Shown here: one piece after another, positions 36,245 to 53,621 of the stretch | How positions within the stretch are numbered: the stretch's first letter is position 1 | Layout: each line of letters opens with the position of its first letter | Assembly: GCA_001816585.1 (NCBI GenBank) | Contig: MHCJ01000003.1 | Location: 220,228-284,227 of the forward strand | Length of the DNA: 64,000 bases | Reading direction: 5' to 3' | Source: Candidatus Chisholmbacteria bacterium RIFCSPHIGHO2_01_FULL_52_32 | GTDB lineage: Bacteria; Patescibacteriota; Microgenomatia; UBA1400; Chisholmbacteraceae | Position numbers and translations under genes: made by a program | The notes under the pieces: model-generated | The model's input: the letters and a program-made list of their open reading frames with translations, nothing else | Told to the model about the DNA's origin: nothing | Database searches by the model: none

Positions 36245-36290
36245 TCGATAAGTTTTCCCATCTTGAGGCTACGGATAATGTAAAGGAATC

Positions 36291-36358
36291 CCTGCCTCGA
36301 ACCACCGACCTGTCCGATGGATCGGACCGCTCTAACCAACTGAGCTACGGACCCCCCC
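36291..36358 (-). pseudogene. truncated tRNA-like element
   Basis: Reverse complement begins GGGTCCGTAGCTCAGTTGGTTAGAGCG (good acceptor 5' strand plus D-arm). It continues as a perfect hairpin GTCCGAT-CC-ATCGGAC where the anticodon arm should be, then AGGTCGGTGGTTCGAGG (variable plus T-stem/loop identical to the neighbouring tRNA-Val). No T-stem 3' strand or acceptor 3' strand follows. Confidence 0.4.
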
Positions 36359-41423: not shown

Positions 41424-42158
41424 CTAGGAGCTTGAAGGCAGTCTCAATCGTCGGGCTGTTTTGGGGAACTTATTTCTGAAGGCTTCGATGACAAGTGAAG
41501 CTGCGTTCTCAATCGTCATAGAGGTGGTGTTAATCACGATGTCGTAATAATTGGGGCTAGAAACATCTTTTCCGAAGTACTGACGGATGAATTCTTTCCT
41601 CTTCTTGTCGGTTTCACGGATGACATTGATTGCTTTTTCTCTGTTGATGTGTTCGAACTTGACTGCCCGTTCGACGCGTACGAGGTAGGGCGCGCATATC
41701 CGAACGTGAAGACCCTTGCTAAACGGTGTAATAAAATTTGCACCTCTGCCGAGGATAACAACTTCTCCTCGAATTGCGGCAGAGAGAACGATAGAAGAAA
41801 GCGAATGAATATATCGGATGTCTGAAACATAGTCCGGGTTGAAGGTTGAATGAATGATATCGTCTATCGCGGTTCGGCTGTGTTCGTCAATTGACTCAAG
41901 GAGTGCGCGCCTTTGGTGCACATTCTTTGCCACATCCTCGATGATCTTGCGGTCATAAAGGGTGAAGCCGAGACGTTTGGCAACGAGGGATGCGACTGGT
42001 TTGCCTCCGCTCCCCGGCTCCCTGGAGATGGTGATGAAGGGCTTCTTGAATCGCCCGGATGGTGACTCCGTTTCTTCTTGCAGCTCGCTGCGTTTCAGGC
42101 GTACAAAGGGTGCAGAGCTGAGGACTTTATTGATCAGGCGGCCATAAAAATGGTGCAT
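41424..42158 (-). CDS. cytidylate-kinase-like family protein (P-loop NTPase)
   Basis: 244 aa. P-loop ISREPGSGGKPVASLVAKRLGF and Cytidylate_kin2-like organisation. Confidence 0.7.
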   Translation of the reverse strand: MHHFYGRLINKVLSSAPFVRLKRSELQEETESPSGRFKKPFITISREPGSGGKPVASLVAKRLGFTLYDRKIIEDVAKNVHQRRALLESIDEHSRTAIDDIIHSTFNPDYVSDIRYIHSLSSIVLSAAIRGEVVILGRGANFITPFSKGLHVRICAPYLVRVERAVKFEHINREKAINVIRETDKKRKEFIRQYFGKDVSSPNYYDIVINTTSMTIENAASLVIEAFRNKFPKTARRLRLPSSS

Positions 42159-42205
42159 TTGGAAAGACGATACACAGTTTAGCGGTTCTGGTCAATGCTC
42201 CGTCG

Positions 42206-42235
42206 TTACACCAGATACCTATCTTTTGTTATAAT
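42206..42235 (+). promoter_or_regulatory. candidate promoter for tRNA-Gly(GCC): TATAAT -10 at 42230-42235
   Basis: TTACAC-18 nt-TATAAT, ending 9 nt before the tRNA 5' end. Confidence 0.35.
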
Positions 42236-42244
42236 GCGGGAGAT

Positions 42245-42316
42245 GCGGGTGTGGTGTACCGGTAACACGACTCCTTGCCAAGGAGTAAACAGAGGGTTCG
42301 ATTCCCTTCACCCGCT
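42245..42316 (+). tRNA. tRNA-Gly (anticodon GCC)
   Basis: GCGGGTG/CACCCGC acceptor, GTGT/ACAC D-stem, ACTCC/GGAGT anticodon stem with loop TTGCCAA, GAGGG/CCCTT T-stem, TTCGATT loop. Confidence 0.85.
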
Positions 42317-42477
42317 CTGGTTCGACAGGCTCACCATTCGCGTGAGGCTGTCGAAGCAAATTGATGAAGGGATGAGAAGTTTACCTCTTCGAGCCTGAGC
42401 GATTCGACTGAGCTCATCGTAGATAACCTCAGAGCCGAAAGCCTGAGTGAAATCGAAGGGATTCCCTTCACCCGCTC
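42317..42477 (+). repeat. 160-nt tRNA-associated mini-element ending in an 18-nt direct repeat of the tRNA-Gly 3' end
   Basis: gattcccttcacccgctc at 42300-42317 (T-loop to 3' end of the tRNA) recurs at 42460-42477. The segment between starts with a perfect 14-bp hairpin ttcgacaggctcac/gtgaggctgtcgaa and shares gggatgagaagtt ... cctgagtgaaatcgaaggg with the element after tRNA-Gln. Confidence 0.5.
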
Positions 42478-43540
42478 ACTTGTTGTTCCTTCGAAGTCCG
42501 TAGCGCGTTTCGGCTGCGCTTATGAGAGTTTTTATCAGCTCATCATAATCCATCCCCGCTACACGGGCGGCGAACGGAAAATAGGAACTTTTTGAGACCT
42601 CTGGGGGAGTTAGCCCCGGCGGAGAGTTGATTTCGAGGAAAAACGGATTTTCCTCTTCATCGCAGCGGATATCGATTCGGGAGAGATCTTTGATGTCCAA
42701 TGCCTCCCAGATTTGTCTACCCATGTTCTCCAATTTTCCGCGGAGTCTGGTATCGATTTTGGCGGGACAGAGGAGATGGTCGCTATCTTTTTCTTCTTCC
42801 ACGTACCATTTCACTTCGAGGGAATCGAGCGGTTGGTAGCCTTTGGGTAAGTGTGCGTGGTTTGATTCGATAATCGGGAGAAATTTTGGCGGATTGCCAA
42901 GCATTGCAATAGAGAATTCCCTGCCTGTCAGGAATGGCTCAACGAGGGCGGGTTCGTGAAATGTTTTTAGAATCAGAGTTACCTGCTTTTTCAACTCGGC
43001 ATCGCTTCGGACGACGCTGTCGTTTGTTATCCCGGCTGAAGAACCTTGACCAACCGGTTTGACGATGAGCGGATAAGAGAGACGGCTTTCCCGCTTGTCG
43101 TCTGGGGAGCTGAACAGTTGGTACGGGAGCGTCGGTATTCCGTACGCCTTGCAAAGCTGTTTGGCTTTTGCCTTGTTCATCACCAGCGCTTGGGTTAACG
43201 GAGAGGCGCCGGTATAGGGAATACCTAGCATTTCACACATCGCCGGGATGTGGGCGTAACGATCTTTACCGTGTATCCCGAGGGAATAGTTCAATGCCAG
43301 GTAAATTTCATATCTGTGGCTGTAAAGCGACAGGTAGGCTTTCTCGTCGGCTTCTATTTGCAGGACGTTGTAGCCCACGTGTTTGAGGTGGCTCACCATC
43401 TCCTCGATAGCTTGTGGGTCATCGTAGTCCGCTTCTGTGTACGTTGAGGGGTCTTTAGGGTCCGGATAGCGGTGCCTGACGTTATACAAGAATGCGATGA
43501 GGCGTTTGTTCACGGGTTTGCGGGTAGTTGCCATGTCCAT
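42476..43540 (-). CDS. D-alanine--D-alanine ligase family ATP-grasp enzyme (paralog 1)
   Basis: IHGKDRYAHIPAMCEMLGIPYTGASPLTQALVMNKAKAK matches the Ddl N-terminal/central region. ATP-grasp C-terminal part (EPFLTGREFSIAMLG...IRCDEEENPFFLEINSPPGLT). Start uncertain; the track ORF runs to 43588 and overlaps paralog 2. Confidence 0.7.
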   Translation of the reverse strand: MDMATTRKPVNKRLIAFLYNVRHRYPDPKDPSTYTEADYDDPQAIEEMVSHLKHVGYNVLQIEADEKAYLSLYSHRYEIYLALNYSLGIHGKDRYAHIPAMCEMLGIPYTGASPLTQALVMNKAKAKQLCKAYGIPTLPYQLFSSPDDKRESRLSYPLIVKPVGQGSSAGITNDSVVRSDAELKKQVTLILKTFHEPALVEPFLTGREFSIAMLGNPPKFLPIIESNHAHLPKGYQPLDSLEVKWYVEEEKDSDHLLCPAKIDTRLRGKLENMGRQIWEALDIKDLSRIDIRCDEEENPFFLEINSPPGLTPPEVSKSSYFPFAARVAGMDYDELIKTLISAAETRYGLRRNNK

Positions 43541-44621
43541 TACCGTCCGGTGTCGGTAGTACCTTTGTTCCGACTCCCGTTGCGTCACGCATGGTATTTA
43601 ACAGCAGTCTTTTGAGAATTTCCACAAAAGAAATTCCGTACAGATTCAGGATGTTTGCAAGCGCGCAATCCACTTCTTTCGGGCCGAAGGCCGGATTGGA
43701 GTTTGCGTCGATGAAAAAGTAGCGTCCGGAGCTGTCCATGCGAACGTCAAACTTTCCGTAATCGGCCATTTTCGTAATCTCAAATGCCCGTTTGACGTAC
43801 GCTTTCAACAGCTCATCATGATACCGTTGATAGTGGAACGATTCATCTCCGTGCAGTAACCATTGGTCCTCAAAGGTTGAGAAGACGTACTGTTGGTTTT
43901 CTTTATGGAAGACTTTTTCAGCCAGGTATACTTTCTTGTTTAAGCCTTCAAGGAGCATACCGGTAATTTCACGGCCGACAATAAACTCTTCGACTAAGAC
44001 CGGCTGGTCGTATGTTTGGGTTAAGAATTTGATGCGATCGCGGAGGTGTTTCTCGTTTTCCGAGATTGCGTCCACGGTTATTTCAACGCCGCCGTGGATT
44101 TCGTTTAACTTGGAGATAAGGGGAAAGCGAAGCGTTGGATCGAGTGGGTCATTGGGCGTGTTGAATAGCTGGTTGTTCGGTACGGGAACGCCGTACTGTT
44201 GGAGGAGTTTTTTGACCAAAAACTTGTTGTAGTCAAGTGACTCTCCCAAGATTCCGGCTCCGGTATAGGATATTCCCAACAATTCGAGCACAGCGGGAAT
44301 GGTTGATGCCAAGTATTCGTTTCCTTTGACGGAACCGACCAAATTCATGACGATATCAGGCTTATCGCGGCGAAGCTTTTGCGGGAGCAGAGCATCTCCG
44401 GGGTAAAGCTCGGTTCGGATGCCCATCTTTTCCAAGTAGCTTACGATGATTTTCGCATCATGGAGTGCGTCTTTTTCCGTGAGGTACTGCGCTTCTGTGG
44501 GAAAGTATTCTCGCTTGACTTCGCTATAGGTGACTGCGACTTTCTTTGGAAGCTCAAGGGGAGTTTTGCCGTTTTGGGTCGTTGGCTGGCTGGGCGGTTT
44601 GTCTTCGGTGTCTGCGTTCAT
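43482..44621 (-). CDS. D-alanine--D-alanine ligase family ATP-grasp enzyme (paralog 2)
   Basis: VMNLVGSVKGNEYLASTIPAVLELLGISYTGAGILGESLDYNKFLVKKLL and an ATP-grasp C-terminus. Tandem to paralog 1. Confidence 0.7.
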   Translation of the reverse strand: MNADTEDKPPSQPTTQNGKTPLELPKKVAVTYSEVKREYFPTEAQYLTEKDALHDAKIIVSYLEKMGIRTELYPGDALLPQKLRRDKPDIVMNLVGSVKGNEYLASTIPAVLELLGISYTGAGILGESLDYNKFLVKKLLQQYGVPVPNNQLFNTPNDPLDPTLRFPLISKLNEIHGGVEITVDAISENEKHLRDRIKFLTQTYDQPVLVEEFIVGREITGMLLEGLNKKVYLAEKVFHKENQQYVFSTFEDQWLLHGDESFHYQRYHDELLKAYVKRAFEITKMADYGKFDVRMDSSGRYFFIDANSNPAFGPKEVDCALANILNLYGISFVEILKRLLLNTMRDATGVGTKVLPTPDGNGHGNYPQTREQTPHRILV

Positions 44622-44753
44622 TGTTCAATTCTCTTTTTCGTGTACTATCCATAATTTATTCATTTTTCACAATTGTCAAGTAGGAATATTGGAAGAATCC
44701 TGATAAAATATACTCGTTTCAAAGTATTTGCGTAGTGGTGGAGCTGGAGTCAT

Positions 44754-44824
44754 TGGGAGGTCGTCTAACGGTAGGACATCAGGTTTTGGACCTGAGTATC
44801 GGGGTTCGAATCCCTGCCTCCCAG
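44754..44824 (+). tRNA. tRNA-Gln (anticodon TTG)
   Basis: TGGGAGG/CCTCCCA acceptor, GTCT/GGAC D-stem, TCAGG/CCTGA anticodon stem with loop TTTTGGA, CGGGG/CCCTG T-stem. Confidence 0.85.
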
Positions 44825-44927
44825 CACTTCGACAAGCTCAGTGCTTTAGCACCGGGGTTGTAGAAGCATTGGCAGGGATGAGAAGTTGACCCTGAGTGAA
44901 ATCGAAGGGAATCCCTGCCTCCCAGCA
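44825..44927 (+). repeat. ~100-nt tRNA-associated mini-element ending in a 19-nt direct repeat of the tRNA-Gln 3' end
   Basis: gaatccctgcctcccagca at 44808-44826 recurs at 44909-44927. The element shares ttcgacaRgc, aagca, gggatgagaagtt and cctgagtgaaatcgaaggg with the tRNA-Gly(GCC) element. tRNA-Leu(TAA) begins 7 nt later. Confidence 0.5.
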
Positions 44928-44933
44928 TCACTT

Positions 44934-45017
44934 GCCGCGGTGCTGGAATTGGCAGACAGGCCAGACTTAAAATCTGGTGACCGCAAGGTCGTGTGGGTTC
45001 GACTCCCTCCCGCGGCA
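44934..45017 (+). tRNA. tRNA-Leu (anticodon TAA)
   Basis: GCCGCGG/CCGCGGC acceptor, CCAGA/TCTGG anticodon stem with loop CTTAAAA, long variable arm TGACCGCAAGGTCGT. Confidence 0.8.
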
Positions 45018-45120
45018 CAAATGACTTAAAACTTAAAACTGAAGACTTAAGACGCAAAACGAAAGAGGAGCATGACATTTAGTATTTGGTCTTTCCTGTT
45101 AAGTTGACTATAAGGCAATC

Positions 45121-45175
45121 GCGGAGAGTGGAGCAGCTGGTAGGACGCCCCGTGAGATAAAGAAGTTAAGCGTAT
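45121..45175 (+). pseudogene. tRNA 5'-half-like fragment
   Basis: GCGGAGAGTGGAGCAGCTGGTAGGAC resembles an acceptor strand plus D-arm. Anticodon/T arms are not recognisable downstream. Confidence 0.3.
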
Positions 45176-45189
45176 CACTATTACAATTT

Positions 45190-45264
45190 CGGAGCGTAGT
45201 TCATCGGTAGAACGCTCGGTTTGGGACCGAGAGGTAGTGGGTTCAATTCCCTCCGCTCCGACCA
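45190..45264 (+). tRNA. tRNA-Pro (anticodon TGG), CCA encoded
   Basis: CGGAGCG/CGCTCCG acceptor, GTTC/GAAC D-stem, CTCGG/CCGAG anticodon stem with loop TTTGGGA, GTGGG..CCCTC T-arm, ACCA 3' end. Confidence 0.85.
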
Positions 45265-45269
45265 ATTAA

Positions 45270-45410
45270 TTTTGGTGAGTAGAGCCAGTGTTCGAGTCTC
45301 GACCTCCAACATTGTATCTCACGGGGAGGTCCCGGGTTCGAATCCCGGCTCTCCGACATCGTATCTACCGGGGGGGTCGTCAGTTCAAATCTGACATCCC
45401 CGACATTGCT
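45270..45410 (+). other. array of three ~45-nt tRNA acceptor/T-arm minihelix-like units
   Basis: Unit 2 (45322-45358): CGGGGAG-GTC-CCGGG-TTCGAAT-CCCGG-CTCTCCG-ACA, where the 7-bp acceptor pairs and a T-arm is closed by a 3-nt linker. Unit 3 (45369-45405): CGGGGGG-GTC-GTCAG-TTCAAAT-CTGAC-ATCCCCG-ACA. Unit 1 (about 45270-45310) is degenerate. Each is preceded by tNgtatctNNc. Confidence 0.4.
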
Positions 45411-48980: not shown

Positions 48981-48994
48981 CAGAGCGTTGCATT

Positions 48995-49040
48995 GCGGGC
49001 AGGCAAGGTGGAGATGCGGGTTCGATTCCCGCTATCCGCT
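48995..49040 (+). other. internally deleted tRNA-Gly copy (acceptor 5' strand + anticodon-loop-to-3'-end half)
   Basis: GCGGGCA-G-GCAAGGTGG-AGAT-GCGGG-TTCGATT-CCCGC-TATCCGC-T. CAAGGTGG equals the 3' half of the tRNA-Gly(TCC) anticodon loop and stem. Lies 15 nt after the intact tRNA. Confidence 0.45.
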
Positions 49041-49067
49041 CATCTTGCCAAAAGGAGGATGAGCGAG

Positions 49068-49234: not shown

Positions 49235-49339
49235 CAAGATAAAGTGAAAAGTTAAACCCATTCGACAAGCCCTTCGGCCGCGAGCTCAGGACCGAGTGGC
49301 TCAGAGCAAGAATGAAAAGTTAAAAGTTATCATACGTTT

Positions 49340-51999: not shown

Positions 52000-52242
52000 C
52001 TACGGAGTAACTTCAAAGAGCGTCATAATAATTCCTTTCAGTTCGACCCTTACGGGTCTGAAGCCCATGAATGCCTCTCCGGTCGGGACAATTTCAACAC
52101 TTGGATCCAGGTGGACTAACTCTGCATCGAGGCTTGGTCCGGAGAGGAGCAAGCGAGCCGATTTATTTTCATACGACACAGCTCTCGGTTGACTTTCTGA
52201 AGATCCCATGTATGTTTTGGCTTCTTTATTGCGAATACACAA
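52000..52242 (-). CDS. hypothetical small protein
   Basis: 80 aa. No family recognised. Directly upstream (on the minus strand) of the two small membrane proteins; the GspE-like ATPase lies further upstream. Confidence 0.3.
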   Translation of the reverse strand: MCIRNKEAKTYMGSSESQPRAVSYENKSARLLLSGPSLDAELVHLDPSVEIVPTGEAFMGFRPVRVELKGIIMTLFEVTP

Positions 52243-52340
52243 AAAACCAGAGCGCTTCCTTCGACAAGCTCAGGATAAATAGGCTCTGGGAATTAATCCT
52301 ACTTTTACGAGGCAGGCCGTGTCAATACGACGATTTTCCT

Positions 52341-53621
52341 CTAGGTCTTTCGGATGCTGTTACGGAGCACCTCCTCCGGAGTTGTAATACCTTGTTCGCA
52401 CTTTTCCAGGCCGTCCCGGAAAAGTGAGATAAAGCCTTCTTTCTGAAGCGTGTCGCGGAGGATGTCCTCGTTGGCTTTGGCACGGATAAGGTCCCTCATC
52501 CTTGCAGTCATCGTCAGTACTTCATAGATTCCGGTTCGTCCCTGGTAGCCAAGGTCCTGGCAGGAAAGACAGCCTTTTCCCTTGACGAGTTTTTTCGGAG
52601 GTCTGCCAAGAATTTTCTGAAACAGGTCCAATTCCTGAGGAGAAGCCTGGTACTCGGCATTGCACTCCGGACATACTCTCCTGACCAGCCGCTGGGCAAC
52701 GATTCCCAATATGGAGGAGTTTAAAAGGTAGGTTTCAATGCCGAGGTCAAGCAGTCGAAAAAGGGCGCCGACCGCATCTCCGGCATGGATGGTTGAGAGG
52801 ACAAGTTGTCCGGTAAGGCCGGATTCGACGGCGATTTCGGCTGTTTCTTTGTCACGAATCTCTCCAACCAGGATAATATCGGGACTTAACCGGACGATCG
52901 TCCGTAAACCCTCTGCGAAGCTGAACCCGGCCTCTGCGTTTGTCTGCATCTGATTGACTCCCGGGAGCTGAAATTCCACGGGATCTTCAATGGTCATGAT
53001 ATTGTAGTTCTGATTGAGGTTGATTTTTGAAATGGTTGAGTACAAGGTTGTTGTTTTTCCGCATCCCGTTGGGCCGCAGACAAGAATCAGGCCGCTCCTG
53101 GCATTGAGCATTTCCTGATAGTTTTGGTAGGCTTGGGCGTTGAACCCCAGTTCGGAGAGTTCCATGATAATGGTTCGCTTCTCGTGAATACGTATGACGA
53201 TCACTTCTCCGTGGACGGTCTGCGCAATTTCAACCCGAAGATTTACTGCTCTTCCCTCGATGTCCAAAGACAACTGACCTTCCTGGATTTTCCTTTTTTC
53301 CGTAGGATCAAGCTTTGCCAGGATCTTGATGCGGGAGGACACTTCCGGGTAGTCATCGTGGGTGATCTCGCCGAGCTCGTAGAATACTCCGTCGATCTTT
53401 GCCCTGATCCGAACGACCGCCTTCATCGGCTCTATTAGGAGATCTGAAGCCTGAAGCGAGGCGGACTCGCGCAGTAGCGTGTTCACGAACGGAATCGCAT
53501 CAATTGGAGATTGGGCAAACGCATCCCGCAAGAAGCGGGTTGAGACCTTCTGTGGGGTTTGGGGTTCGGTGGGCAAGGTCTTGGTCATTGAGGGCTTCTT
53601 TGACCAGGTTAACATAGCCAA
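52341..53621 (-). CDS. GspE/PilB-family secretion ATPase lacking the N-terminal GspII domain
   Basis: 426 aa. Walker A VCGPTGCGKTTTLYS, Asp/His boxes, C-terminal CPEC...CLSC tetra-Cys. Confidence 0.8.
   Translation of the reverse strand: MAMLTWSKKPSMTKTLPTEPQTPQKVSTRFLRDAFAQSPIDAIPFVNTLLRESASLQASDLLIEPMKAVVRIRAKIDGVFYELGEITHDDYPEVSSRIKILAKLDPTEKRKIQEGQLSLDIEGRAVNLRVEIAQTVHGEVIVIRIHEKRTIIMELSELGFNAQAYQNYQEMLNARSGLILVCGPTGCGKTTTLYSTISKINLNQNYNIMTIEDPVEFQLPGVNQMQTNAEAGFSFAEGLRTIVRLSPDIILVGEIRDKETAEIAVESGLTGQLVLSTIHAGDAVGALFRLLDLGIETYLLNSSILGIVAQRLVRRVCPECNAEYQASPQELDLFQKILGRPPKKLVKGKGCLSCQDLGYQGRTGIYEVLTMTARMRDLIRAKANEDILRDTLQKEGFISLFRDGLEKCEQGITTPEEVLRNSIRKT

Follow-up and report, generated by a model that had tools for sequence, protein, structure and literature searches.

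A short tRNA-linked module carrying a copy and an antisense of the preceding tRNA's 3′ end, found mostly in Candidate Phyla Radiation bacteria

Genomic islands and prophages reportedly integrate at the 3′ ends of tRNA genes through the att sites of tyrosine integrases, and Williams is said to have distinguished in 2002 classes of sublocation within the tRNA gene, including one in the T-loop. Other RNAs imitate tRNAs or accompany them, such as viral tRNA-like structures, mascRNA, the tRNA-like domain of tmRNA, and the hepatitis delta virus (HDV)-like “theta” ribozymes downstream of phage tRNAs. In archaea, tRNA genes may be split or carry non-canonical introns (e.g. at 56/57), and in Thermoproteales, sequences resembling introns and able to pair with the exons have spread among the tRNA genes. 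Here we describe an element of ~100 bases after tRNA-Gln(TTG) in a 64-kb stretch of the genome of Candidatus Chisholmbacteria bacterium RIFCSPHIGHO2_01_FULL_52_32 (contig MHCJ01000003.1; hereafter the window, with 1-based positions over its full length and the tRNA strand as (+)). A conserved RNA module matched to its tRNA describes the element better than does a simple insertion that duplicates its target.

A preliminary description of this locus had reported that the 3′ end of tRNA-Gln is repeated downstream, which was borne out: the 19-mer GAATCCCTGCCTCCCAGCA is found exactly twice in the window, with 19/19 nucleotides identical and no occurrence expected by chance (100 dinucleotide shuffles, ≤2 mismatches allowed). 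The repeat, numbered as in tRNAs, begins at G57 of the T-loop and extends through C74 to A75. Within the 82 nt between the copies lie a hairpin (P1), a 4-nt linker, a segment termed X′ (GGCAGGGAT), which is the exact complement of ATCCCTGCC at tRNA-Gln positions 59–67, a bulge starting with GAGAAG, and a second hairpin (P3) whose last G doubles as position 57 of the distal copy (Table 1). In the predicted fold X′ pairs with distal positions 59–67 as stem P2, leaving positions 68–74 single-stranded. X′ perfectly complements the 3′ strand, placing an A opposite U where the T-stem of the tRNA itself pairs G·U, hence X′ is not a copy of the T-stem 5′ strand.

As with tRNA-integrating islands, there is a direct repeat from T-loop to 3′ end, the tRNA is left intact by virtue of a second copy, and CCA is commoner after the distal copy. 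Direct repeats of the att type are indeed present at both ends, at 19 nt in the Gln element and 18 nt across the family. However, the repeats enclose no integrase or cargo, only the 82 nt mentioned above or 142 nt at tRNA-Gly, and the neighbouring genes encode Ddl-like and FemAB proteins. The elements further differ from islands in that the same internal sequence serves many tRNAs and includes a tRNA-specific antisense forming a covarying stem with the distal repeat.

Behind tRNA-Gly(GCC) lies a sister element, where GATTCCCTTCACCCGCTC (tRNA-Gly positions 57–74) is present at the end of the tRNA and again downstream. The blocks GGGATGAGAAGTT and CCTGAGTGAAATCGAAGGG each occur exactly twice in the window (0.03 chance matches expected for the 19-mer block), so the two elements do share ordered blocks as first described, although the original list of blocks needs amending. 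Its “aagca” is merely the end of P1 and no family-wide conserved block, the bases just 5′ of GGGAT vary and are complementary to each tRNA, and the last G of the block ending in CGAAGGG belongs to the repeat as position 57. In the Gly element TGAAGGGA complements TCCCTTCA (tRNA-Gly 60–67), with the last T of TGAAGGGAT facing U59; X′ thus matches tRNA-Gln in one element and tRNA-Gly in the other, and is tRNA-specific. The extra ~50 nt ascribed to the Gly version resolved, on pairwise alignment, into a single 57-nt insertion between TTTACC and CTGAGTG, itself a palindrome of the repeat family to which P3 belongs.

To place these two copies, the 18-mer CTGAGTGAAATCGAAGGG was searched as an exact match in GTDB (one genome per species, 596 Gb), which returned at least 120 loci where we estimate ~17 chance matches for an 18-mer, and a pattern of CTGAGTGAAATCGAAGGG-type core plus GAGAAG was searched in JGI metagenomes, giving 44 loci. 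At ~35 of these 44 the module lies 6–110 nt downstream of a same-strand tRNA and is followed by positions 57–74 of that tRNA. The architecture follows at least 16 tRNA species, mostly in Candidate Phyla Radiation (CPR) bacteria, including Gly(TCC/GCC), Ser(GCT, TGA, CGA, GGA), Leu(TAA, GAG, CAG), Gln(TTG, CTG), Glu, Asp, Met, Trp, Arg(TCT) and Phe. Its order is an optional P1, X′ (5–9 nt antisense to positions 59–67), GAGAAG, a small invariant P3 (CCUGAG-UGAAAU-CGAAGG) and the copy of 57–74. One and the same 29-nt core recurs, with its register unchanged, behind tRNAs in at least 20 independent contexts. Modules linked to a tRNA always share its strand, and both X′ and the copy follow each tRNA's own sequence. 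Coincidental similarity, the outcome that the preliminary description had tied to a lack of further copies or empty sites, can be set aside, since dozens of copies together with empty orthologous sites place both window copies in a real family.

The hexamer GAGAAG is diagnostic of this form. Among the 126 GTDB matches listed, all three with GAGAAG are tRNA-linked, as against a tRNA nearby in three of the 123 without it; the three are a tRNA-Gly(TCC) in Blackburnbacteria (L019), a tRNA-Ser(GCT) in Levybacteria (L110) and a tRNA-Trp on a contig binned as Flavobacteriaceae (L132). It is also invariant in 21 aligned modules, a number to be read with the fact that the metagenome pattern itself required GAGAAG. 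The P1 5′ arm is conserved in sequence across the family while the hairpin is optional, and P1 sequences are specific to the tRNA type and common to different genomes. The left side of the element is the more variable: the tRNA-to-module distance ranges from 6 to ~110 nt, the left part is missing in L143 and L132, and at the tRNA-Asp of L147 an intrinsic terminator takes the place of P1 between tRNA and module. Furthermore, a 70-nt domain replaces P3 at the tRNA-Gly of L176, and orphan modules without a tRNA occur in L133, in L156 and as a second copy in L151, 2.2 kb from the first. Elements frequently lie between two tRNAs.

Three further loci resemble the family less strictly. On a Pirellulales contig (L058, 2271–2560, (+)) a tRNA-Ser(GCT) is followed by a 15-nt T-arm antisense (GGCGGGATTTGAACC), next by a P3 motif and lastly by a one-mismatch copy of the 3′ end 176 nt downstream, a looser form of the design outside the CPR. 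A Levybacteria contig (L145) that is near-identical to L110/L160 lacks 32 nt comprising the T-arm and 3′ end of tRNA-Ser(GCT), so that tRNA body, P1, module and distal copy remain; this is either a natural test of the distal copy's ability to complete the tRNA, or a pseudogene or assembly variant. In the window itself (49255–49320, (+)), tRNA-Arg(TCT) is followed by a P1-like TTCGACAAGC...GAGCTCAGG... and then AGAATGAAAAGTT, with no P3 and no tRNA copy, which may be a decayed or partial family member.

The 21 distinct aligned modules carry the marks of a conserved RNA structure. Across P2 and P3, 87.9% of cells are paired, and in seven of the eight P2 pairs both partners have changed. Covariation scored 0.325, compared with 0.16 in shuffles (0/500 reached 0.325) and 0.08–0.13 with slid partners. 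The closing pair of P3, Y23–R57, covaries as well (C-G in 16 modules, U-A in four and U-G in one); as R57 thereby behaves as a Watson–Crick partner of Y23, a K-turn at the P2/P3 junction was ruled out. P1 pairs, scored symmetrically in 22 elements, comprise 271 Watson–Crick, 38 G·U and nine A·C, and this excess of G·U points to an RNA helix on the tRNA strand. Compensatory change beyond the controls, as expected of a functional structured RNA, was therefore found in P2 and Y23–R57, in addition to the G·U bias of P1.

Sequence conservation has its own boundaries. The distal copy is identical to the tRNA in 21–23 of 23 cases at positions 68–74, falling to eight at position 75 and four at 76; the best match is the unpaired tail, and identity ends exactly at C74. 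Between L138 and L152 the block of tRNA plus element is 98.5% identical with flanks at 83–89%, and in more distant pairs this block is the only alignable DNA (83–90% identity, 77% in one pair). All 25 tRNAs truly preceding a module have TTCGA, and 15 of 85 module-less tRNAs have TTCAA. A C at position 74 is encoded by all 110 distinct tRNA genes in the window, L019, L110 and L133–L176, with a full CCA in only 23 (~21%), which suggests an unusual rule of 3′-end maturation.

Our tentative reading, held with less than even confidence, is that the element is a co-transcribed tRNA-trailer RNA able to swap the 3′ strand of the tRNA in an exchange started at the T-loop. The module would be transcribed as the 3′ trailer of its cognate tRNA (at Gln, as the inter-tRNA spacer), and its working parts would be the antisense X′ plus GAGAA (against positions 54–67), P3 with its tandem G·A and GAAA-type loop, and the sense copy of 57–74, the optional P1 serving as a spacer from the tRNA. 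Two folds come out as close to equivalent. In one state (fold A) the tRNA would form its normal cloverleaf and X′ would clamp the distal copy as P2. In the other (fold B) GAGAA would nucleate on the single-stranded, universally conserved T-loop UUCGA, X′ would next displace the T-stem and acceptor 5′ strands, these would re-pair with the distal copy, and the tRNA body would end in the distal 3′ strand. Such a swap, with the T-arm as the site of invasion, could decide whether the pre-tRNA folds, in what manner, and which of the 3′ ends is matured. Transcription through the module, the exchange of strands and a physiological role are what we infer from sequence comparison.

Several features fit this trailer RNA. 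X′ and GAGAA together form a 14-nt antisense to positions 54–67 of the real tRNA (A-U54, A-U55, G-C56, tandem G·A at G57/A58, then 59–67), so that GAGAA would make three Watson–Crick pairs and a tandem G·A with T-loop U54–A58. The distal copy is without positions 54–56, hence the antisense fits the real tRNA better than the copy. In constrained folding of eight elements (an unconstrained fold was also run), fold B was predicted to be 1.1–8.6 kcal/mol more stable than fold A in all eight, with the UUC:GAA pairs forming in six. Strand exchange would account for GAGAAG being constant and X′ variable, because the T-loop UUCGA is invariant; pairing of GAGAA with the T-loop would likewise explain why every module-preceding tRNA has TTCGA, and a need to pair with the 5′ acceptor strand fits the match of the tail and its stop at C74. 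Recurrence behind so many tRNAs, covariation of P2 and Y23–R57, the G·U excess of P1, P1 types that go with the tRNA type, and conservation beyond that of the flanks also speak for an RNA of this kind.

A number of observations weigh against strand exchange, however. Folds A and B are inseparable by covariation because the two copies are usually identical, and among heterologous copies X′ fits the distal one better in L165 and L140 and the proximal one better in L142. Mismatches in P2 are more often A·C (14) than G·U (6), leaving its wobble asymmetry uninformative. As GAGAAG and core were fixed by the metagenome search pattern, the invariance of the core is partly ascertainment. The terminator before the L147 module argues against obligatory co-transcription, orphan modules occur without a tRNA, presence among orthologous tRNAs is patchy, and a fold-B tRNA would be without a normal T-loop.

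The module probably reached its different tRNA genes by insertion or duplication, and a mobile past is compatible with a trailer RNA. The preliminary description had gone further and proposed a mobile element that duplicates the tRNA end on insertion. Mobility draws support from patchy presence, orphans and the commoner CCA after the distal copy, and an insertional origin of the element is plausible; duplication of a target fits poorly, given the variable distance, a left part that can be absent or replaced, the covarying antisense stem, the G·U bias of P1 and conservation like that of the tRNA. Moreover, no short target-site duplication abuts both ends, the proximal copy being 6 to ~110 nt from the module.

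The main rival is a selfish miniature integrative element made of the 57–74 copy, P1, X′ and the core, which would enter a tRNA gene between C56 and G57 or recombine via the 18-bp identity. Its replacement 3′ end would keep the tRNA functional while the native end was displaced downstream, and X′ with the copy would be a folded attC- or CTX-like site, or a clamp on the displaced end, with a recombinase or reverse transcriptase supplied in trans. Taken as a whole we consider this account possible, though on the unlikely side. It would explain why orthologous sites are both filled and empty: tRNA-Leu(CAG), Leu(GAG) and Phe(GAA) of the window have no element, and L176, L175 and L134 carry it. One core is found after so many tRNA species, including in the Flavobacteriaceae bin and, more loosely, in Pirellulales, and there are orphans such as the second L151 copy. 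A CA after the distal copy (making CCA) is present in 9/23 cases, against CCA at 3/26 proximal ends and 20/84 module-less tRNAs, and the distal copy is spaced from the next tRNA as at native tRNA–tRNA junctions. The related palindrome nested in the Gly copy and the related P3 hairpins in >120 species of many phyla also suit a mobile sequence.

A strain-level breakpoint points the same way. A second assembly of the same organism (L012) is 99.7% identical over window 41573–45019 and keeps both elements, then diverges (at its position 2946) right after tRNA-Leu(TAA), at window 45019, with a hybrid acceptor 3′ end (CCCACCTCGGGCA versus CCCTCCCGCGGCA). Judged by these sequences, the break indicates recombination between strains within the T-loop-to-3′-end segment of tRNA-Leu.

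Several features are nevertheless difficult for such an element. No integrase, transposase or reverse transcriptase was seen in or beside any copy, and the genes upstream of ten scattered P3 hairpins were judged by eye to be housekeeping genes, with no family search. The left end is unconserved and its distance from the tRNA variable; a matched copy and a matched antisense are needed for each tRNA, and no known mechanism makes both. P1 types are inherited with the tRNA type where flanks no longer align, and the G·U bias denotes constraint at the RNA level.

A long shot is that the module forms the RNA half of an undescribed programmable system directed at tRNA T-arms, in which a K-loop-like P3 would be the handle for a trans-acting protein and the antisense X′GAGAA (seeded on the universal T-loop) and sense 57–74 arms would engage both strands of the tRNA gene or, as a toehold-mediated device, exchange strands with the tRNA. 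The protein might both insert the element at tRNA genes and maintain it there, or else turn particular tRNAs off and on. Also improbable is a guide RNA for an RNA-guided protein, comparable to bridge RNAs, TIGR tigRNAs, TnpB omega-RNAs or the homing crRNA of type V-K CRISPR-associated transposons (CAST), in which P3 would again be the handle and the two arms would address the T-arm gene strands or the tRNA. Systems of the box C/D K-loop, TIGR-Tas and IS110 bridge RNA type are common in CPR bacteria (PMC12045711). Like these RNAs, the module has a small conserved motif containing tandem G·A, with variable segments on its two sides that match the target and between them stand for both strands, and its conserved scaffold is followed by an 18-nt locus-specific segment with a sharp end. 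Sub-threshold Rfam matches to box C/D sRNAs span precisely the module (sR60, 12.7 bits, E = 1.2; SNORD93, 13.3 bits).

However, the module departs from the box C/D consensus: P3 has CUGA (as in box D) and tandem G·A but no RUGAUGA (box C), and the variable antisense lies 12 nt from the CUGA, whereas a box C/D guide ends 5′ of box D. The two arms pair with each other, both covering one target segment, where TIGR and bridge RNAs are directed at neighbouring ones, and the target is the adjoining gene, hence a guide would be self-targeting. A Pfam scan of ten window open reading frames (ORFs) near the tRNA cluster, among them the genes on either side of both elements, gave housekeeping families with no nuclease or Nop-domain protein. 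TIGR-Tas, defined by tandem units of edge, spacer A, loop and spacer B beside a Nop-domain tas gene (PMC12045711), was rejected for this single module, which forms no array and adjoins tRNAs and cell-wall genes with no Nop-domain gene. A TnpB/IscB omega-RNA or CAST homing crRNA was also rejected, as the scaffold plus 18-nt layout is present with no such gene adjacent in the window.

We give similarly little credence to a trailer-processing device, whether a new self-cleaving ribozyme or a structure recognised by a nuclease, that would define 3′ ends or cuts between tRNAs at C74 in the manner of the “theta” ribozymes of phage tRNAs. The sharp stop of distal-copy identity at C74, the universal C74 in the tRNA genes of these contigs, the frequent position between two tRNAs, and an invariant purine-rich bulge with tandem G·A, typical of small catalytic or protein-binding cores, would all agree with it. 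Against this, a tRNA-specific copy and antisense would be superfluous for a processing signal, and inspection showed neither the hammerhead core (CUGANGA...GAAA) nor loop B of the hairpin ribozyme. No Rfam family, ribozymes included, matched the module: a 16-kb scan at E ≤ 10, covering hammerhead, hairpin, HDV, twister, pistol, hatchet and T-box models, found tRNA genes only, a scan of 126 nt alone gave best relevant matches of 12–18 bits against thresholds of 50–70, and 18 related loci gave none. Inert relics, be they decayed attL/attR scars of tRNA-integrating islands or 3′ halves of tRNAs that were tandemly duplicated by chance and into which a palindromic repeat later moved, would sit well with the many tRNA 3′ fragments and rearrangements (window 45311–45400 and 48983–49042, L073, and L175 upstream of its tRNA), but are highly improbable given the shared core and register in so many contexts, the covarying stem, conservation above the flanks and the lack of cargo between the repeats.

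The module also falls short of the other described classes. Like REP/BIME (repetitive extragenic palindromes and their mosaics) and MITE-like (miniature inverted-repeat) repeats, the P3/U motif (CCTGAG-N5-6-CGAAGG) and its inverse are scattered as hairpins, terminator-loop inserts and arrays, and are nested in the Gly element. The tRNA-linked form differs in adding GAGAAG, the antisense, the 18-nt copy and a fixed orientation, and terminal inverted repeats seem not to be required (L132, L143): U′ (CTTCGACAAGCTCAG) and U (CTGAGTGAAATCGAAG) are inverted in most copies, and the left one is absent in L132, L143, L137 and at the L147 tRNA-Asp. Similar to tRNA-like structures, it is a partial tRNA mimic (a T-stem-like helix and an acceptor 3′ strand to C74(CA)) that would ride on tRNA transcription and processing; unlike them it has a 3′ strand only with no 5′ acceptor strand, is specific to the neighbouring tRNA and includes an antisense. 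Fold B amounts to an insertion between positions 56 and 57, as in archaeal tRNA introns. Such an intron was rejected, since inspection found no 4-bp helix between 3-nt bulges at C56|G57′ and G|G57″ and the host is bacterial; as this “intron” brings a full replacement 3′ exon, no splicing would be needed.

A phage origin was likewise rejected: blastn against 50,697 phage records returned tRNA-Leu similarity only, and the window is a Patescibacteria chromosome with genes for threonyl-tRNA synthetase (ThrRS), trigger factor, Ddl and FemAB. Scanning IMG/VR for a 17-mer gave seven chance matches inside unrelated sequence. The tRNA-linked module appears to be undescribed, as full-text literature searched by sequence, peptide strings and keywords contained no description of it, although subscription papers are under-covered and absence there is no proof.

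If the trailer reading is true, many ultra-small CPR bacteria attach to individual tRNA genes a custom-matched RNA that is both decoy and antisense of the tRNA's own 3′ part, which would add a further, new level to the biogenesis or control of tRNAs, or else reveal a new means by which a tiny element can settle in tRNA genes non-lethally. It would amount to a sequence-programmable RNA switch seeded on the invariant T-loop. Under the integrative alternative, a tRNA-specific element of ~100 nt without its own recombinase would be unusual. The family is a new RNA motif with clear covariation for databases, and may explain the abundant tRNA 3′ fragments and rearrangements in these genomes.

Table 1. 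Features of the elements after tRNA-Gln(TTG) and tRNA-Gly(GCC). tRNA genes were called with ARAGORN and the Rfam tRNA model.
Feature	Window position	Strand	Remarks
tRNA-Gln(TTG)	44754-44825	+	ARAGORN; Rfam tRNA 61.8 bits
tRNA-Gln T-stem 5′ strand	44800-44804	+	
tRNA-Gln T-loop	44805-44811	+	U54-U60
tRNA-Gln T-stem 3′ strand	44812-44816	+	
tRNA-Gln acceptor 3′ strand	44817-44823	+	
tRNA-Gln N73	44824	+	
tRNA-Gln C74	44825	+	
Gln proximal repeat copy	44808-44826	+	tRNA's own positions 57-74 plus A75
Gln hairpin P1	44827-44866	+	Predicted by folding; loop TTTA
P1 5′ arm	44827-44844	+	CTTCGACAAGCTCAGTGC
P1 3′ arm	44849-44866	+	GCACCGGGGTTGTAGAAG
Gln X′	44871-44879	+	GGCAGGGAT; antisense to tRNA positions 59-67; 5′ strand of P2
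Gln GAGAAG + TTGA	44880-44889	+	10-nt bulge; family consensus GAGAAGTTTA
Gln hairpin P3	44890-44909	+	CCCU-GA-G[UGAAAU]C-GA-AGGG; fold and family comparison
Gln distal repeat copy	44909-44927	+	Positions 57-74 (+A)
P2 3′ strand	44911-44919	+	Within distal copy
Unpaired tail	44920-44926	+	Within distal copy; acceptor 3′ strand, N73 and C74
tRNA-Leu(TAA)	44934-45018	+	ARAGORN, Rfam; begins 7 nt past distal repeat
Whole Gly element with tRNA	42245-42477	+	
tRNA-Gly(GCC)	42245-42317	+	
Gly proximal repeat copy	42300-42317	+	Positions 57-74
Gly P1	42320-42357	+	
Gly X′	42365-42373	+	TGAAGGGAT
Gly segment after X′	42374-42385	+	GAGAAGTTTACC
Gly nested insertion	42386-42442	+	57 nt, palindromic
Gly rest of P3	42443-42460	+	
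Gly distal repeat copy	42460-42477	+	

The tRNA-Leu(TAA) gene starts as close to the Gln repeat as the preliminary description stated. No promoter- or terminator-like site was found on the (+) strand between tRNA-Gln and tRNA-Leu, and the two are probably co-transcribed, which makes the element an inter-tRNA spacer. The only ORFs overlapping the Gln element are short mechanical ones of 42–99 aa that also run through tRNA genes. The Pfam scan picked out ThrRS, trigger factor, FemAB and a pair of Ddl-like ligases near the cluster. Among named proteins, the closest homologues of Ddl (Woesebacteria, Roizmanbacteria and “Patescibacteria group”, ~60–67% identity) come from relatives sharing no local gene order with the window, hence synteny supplied no orthologous tRNA sites.

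The palindrome underlying P3 is much more widespread than the tRNA-linked module. The GTDB loci with CTGAGTGAAATCGAAGGG belong to Anaerolineae, Planctomycetota, Omnitrophota, Acidobacteriota, Proteobacteria, Bacteroidota and Patescibacteria, and most of the matches listed belong to a palindromic repeat family, whether as hairpins standing alone, as inserts in terminator loops or as tandem arrays with a 24-nt unit. Together with relatives of the form CCTGAG-N4-6-TCGAAGG and the inverse CCCTTCGACAAGCTCAGG, the 18-mer occurs in more than 120 species from many phyla (L013–L131, e.g. L056, L091 and L131). Scattered P3 hairpins show a mild bias only in orientation to the upstream gene (51 to 32), and the genes upstream of ten of them look housekeeping by eye from their translations, with no transposase evident and no family search run; a reading of these hairpins as TnpB-type transposon ends was dropped on this basis. 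The window also has a free copy (52240–52295, (-)), where UUUAUCCUGAG-CUUGU-CGAAGGA occupies the loop of an intrinsic terminator (CCAGAGC...GCUCUGG plus U6) after the gene at 52341–53621.

Rearranged tRNA pieces are found in the same region. At window 45121–45357 (+) two tRNA halves lie ~160 nt apart with tRNA-Pro(TGG) in between; the 5′ half ends in ...CCCCG-TGAGATA and the 3′ half starts with TATCTCA-CGGGG..., followed by GGTTCGAATCCCGG and the acceptor strand, so that the halves have complementary 7-nt extensions, and ARAGORN calls a tRNA once the middle is removed in silico. Directly after it (45358–45400, (+)) is the 3′ half of a tRNA (GTATCTACCGGGGGGGTCGTCAGTTCAAATCTGACATCCCCGA) that stands as an orphan, lacking any 5′ half close by, and has a lead-in like that of the preceding 3′ half. 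Right after tRNA-Gly(TCC), 48983–49042 (+) repeats the 3′ half of that tRNA, from anticodon stem to 3′ end, over 60 nt in diverged form (74% identity), without a 5′ half and without the GAGAAG/P3 module. Upstream of tRNA-Val(GAC), 36281–36357 (-) holds a tRNA-like 5′ portion (acceptor, D-arm and an odd 6-nt anticodon loop) broken off in the T-loop, at which point GGCAGGGATTCC follows, the T-arm 3′ strand of tRNA-Gln in reverse complement. Elsewhere, L073 (tRNA-Glu) and L175 (positions 1–135) have 3′-end duplications ~80–100 nt downstream with an unrelated spacer and neither P3 nor GAGAAG.

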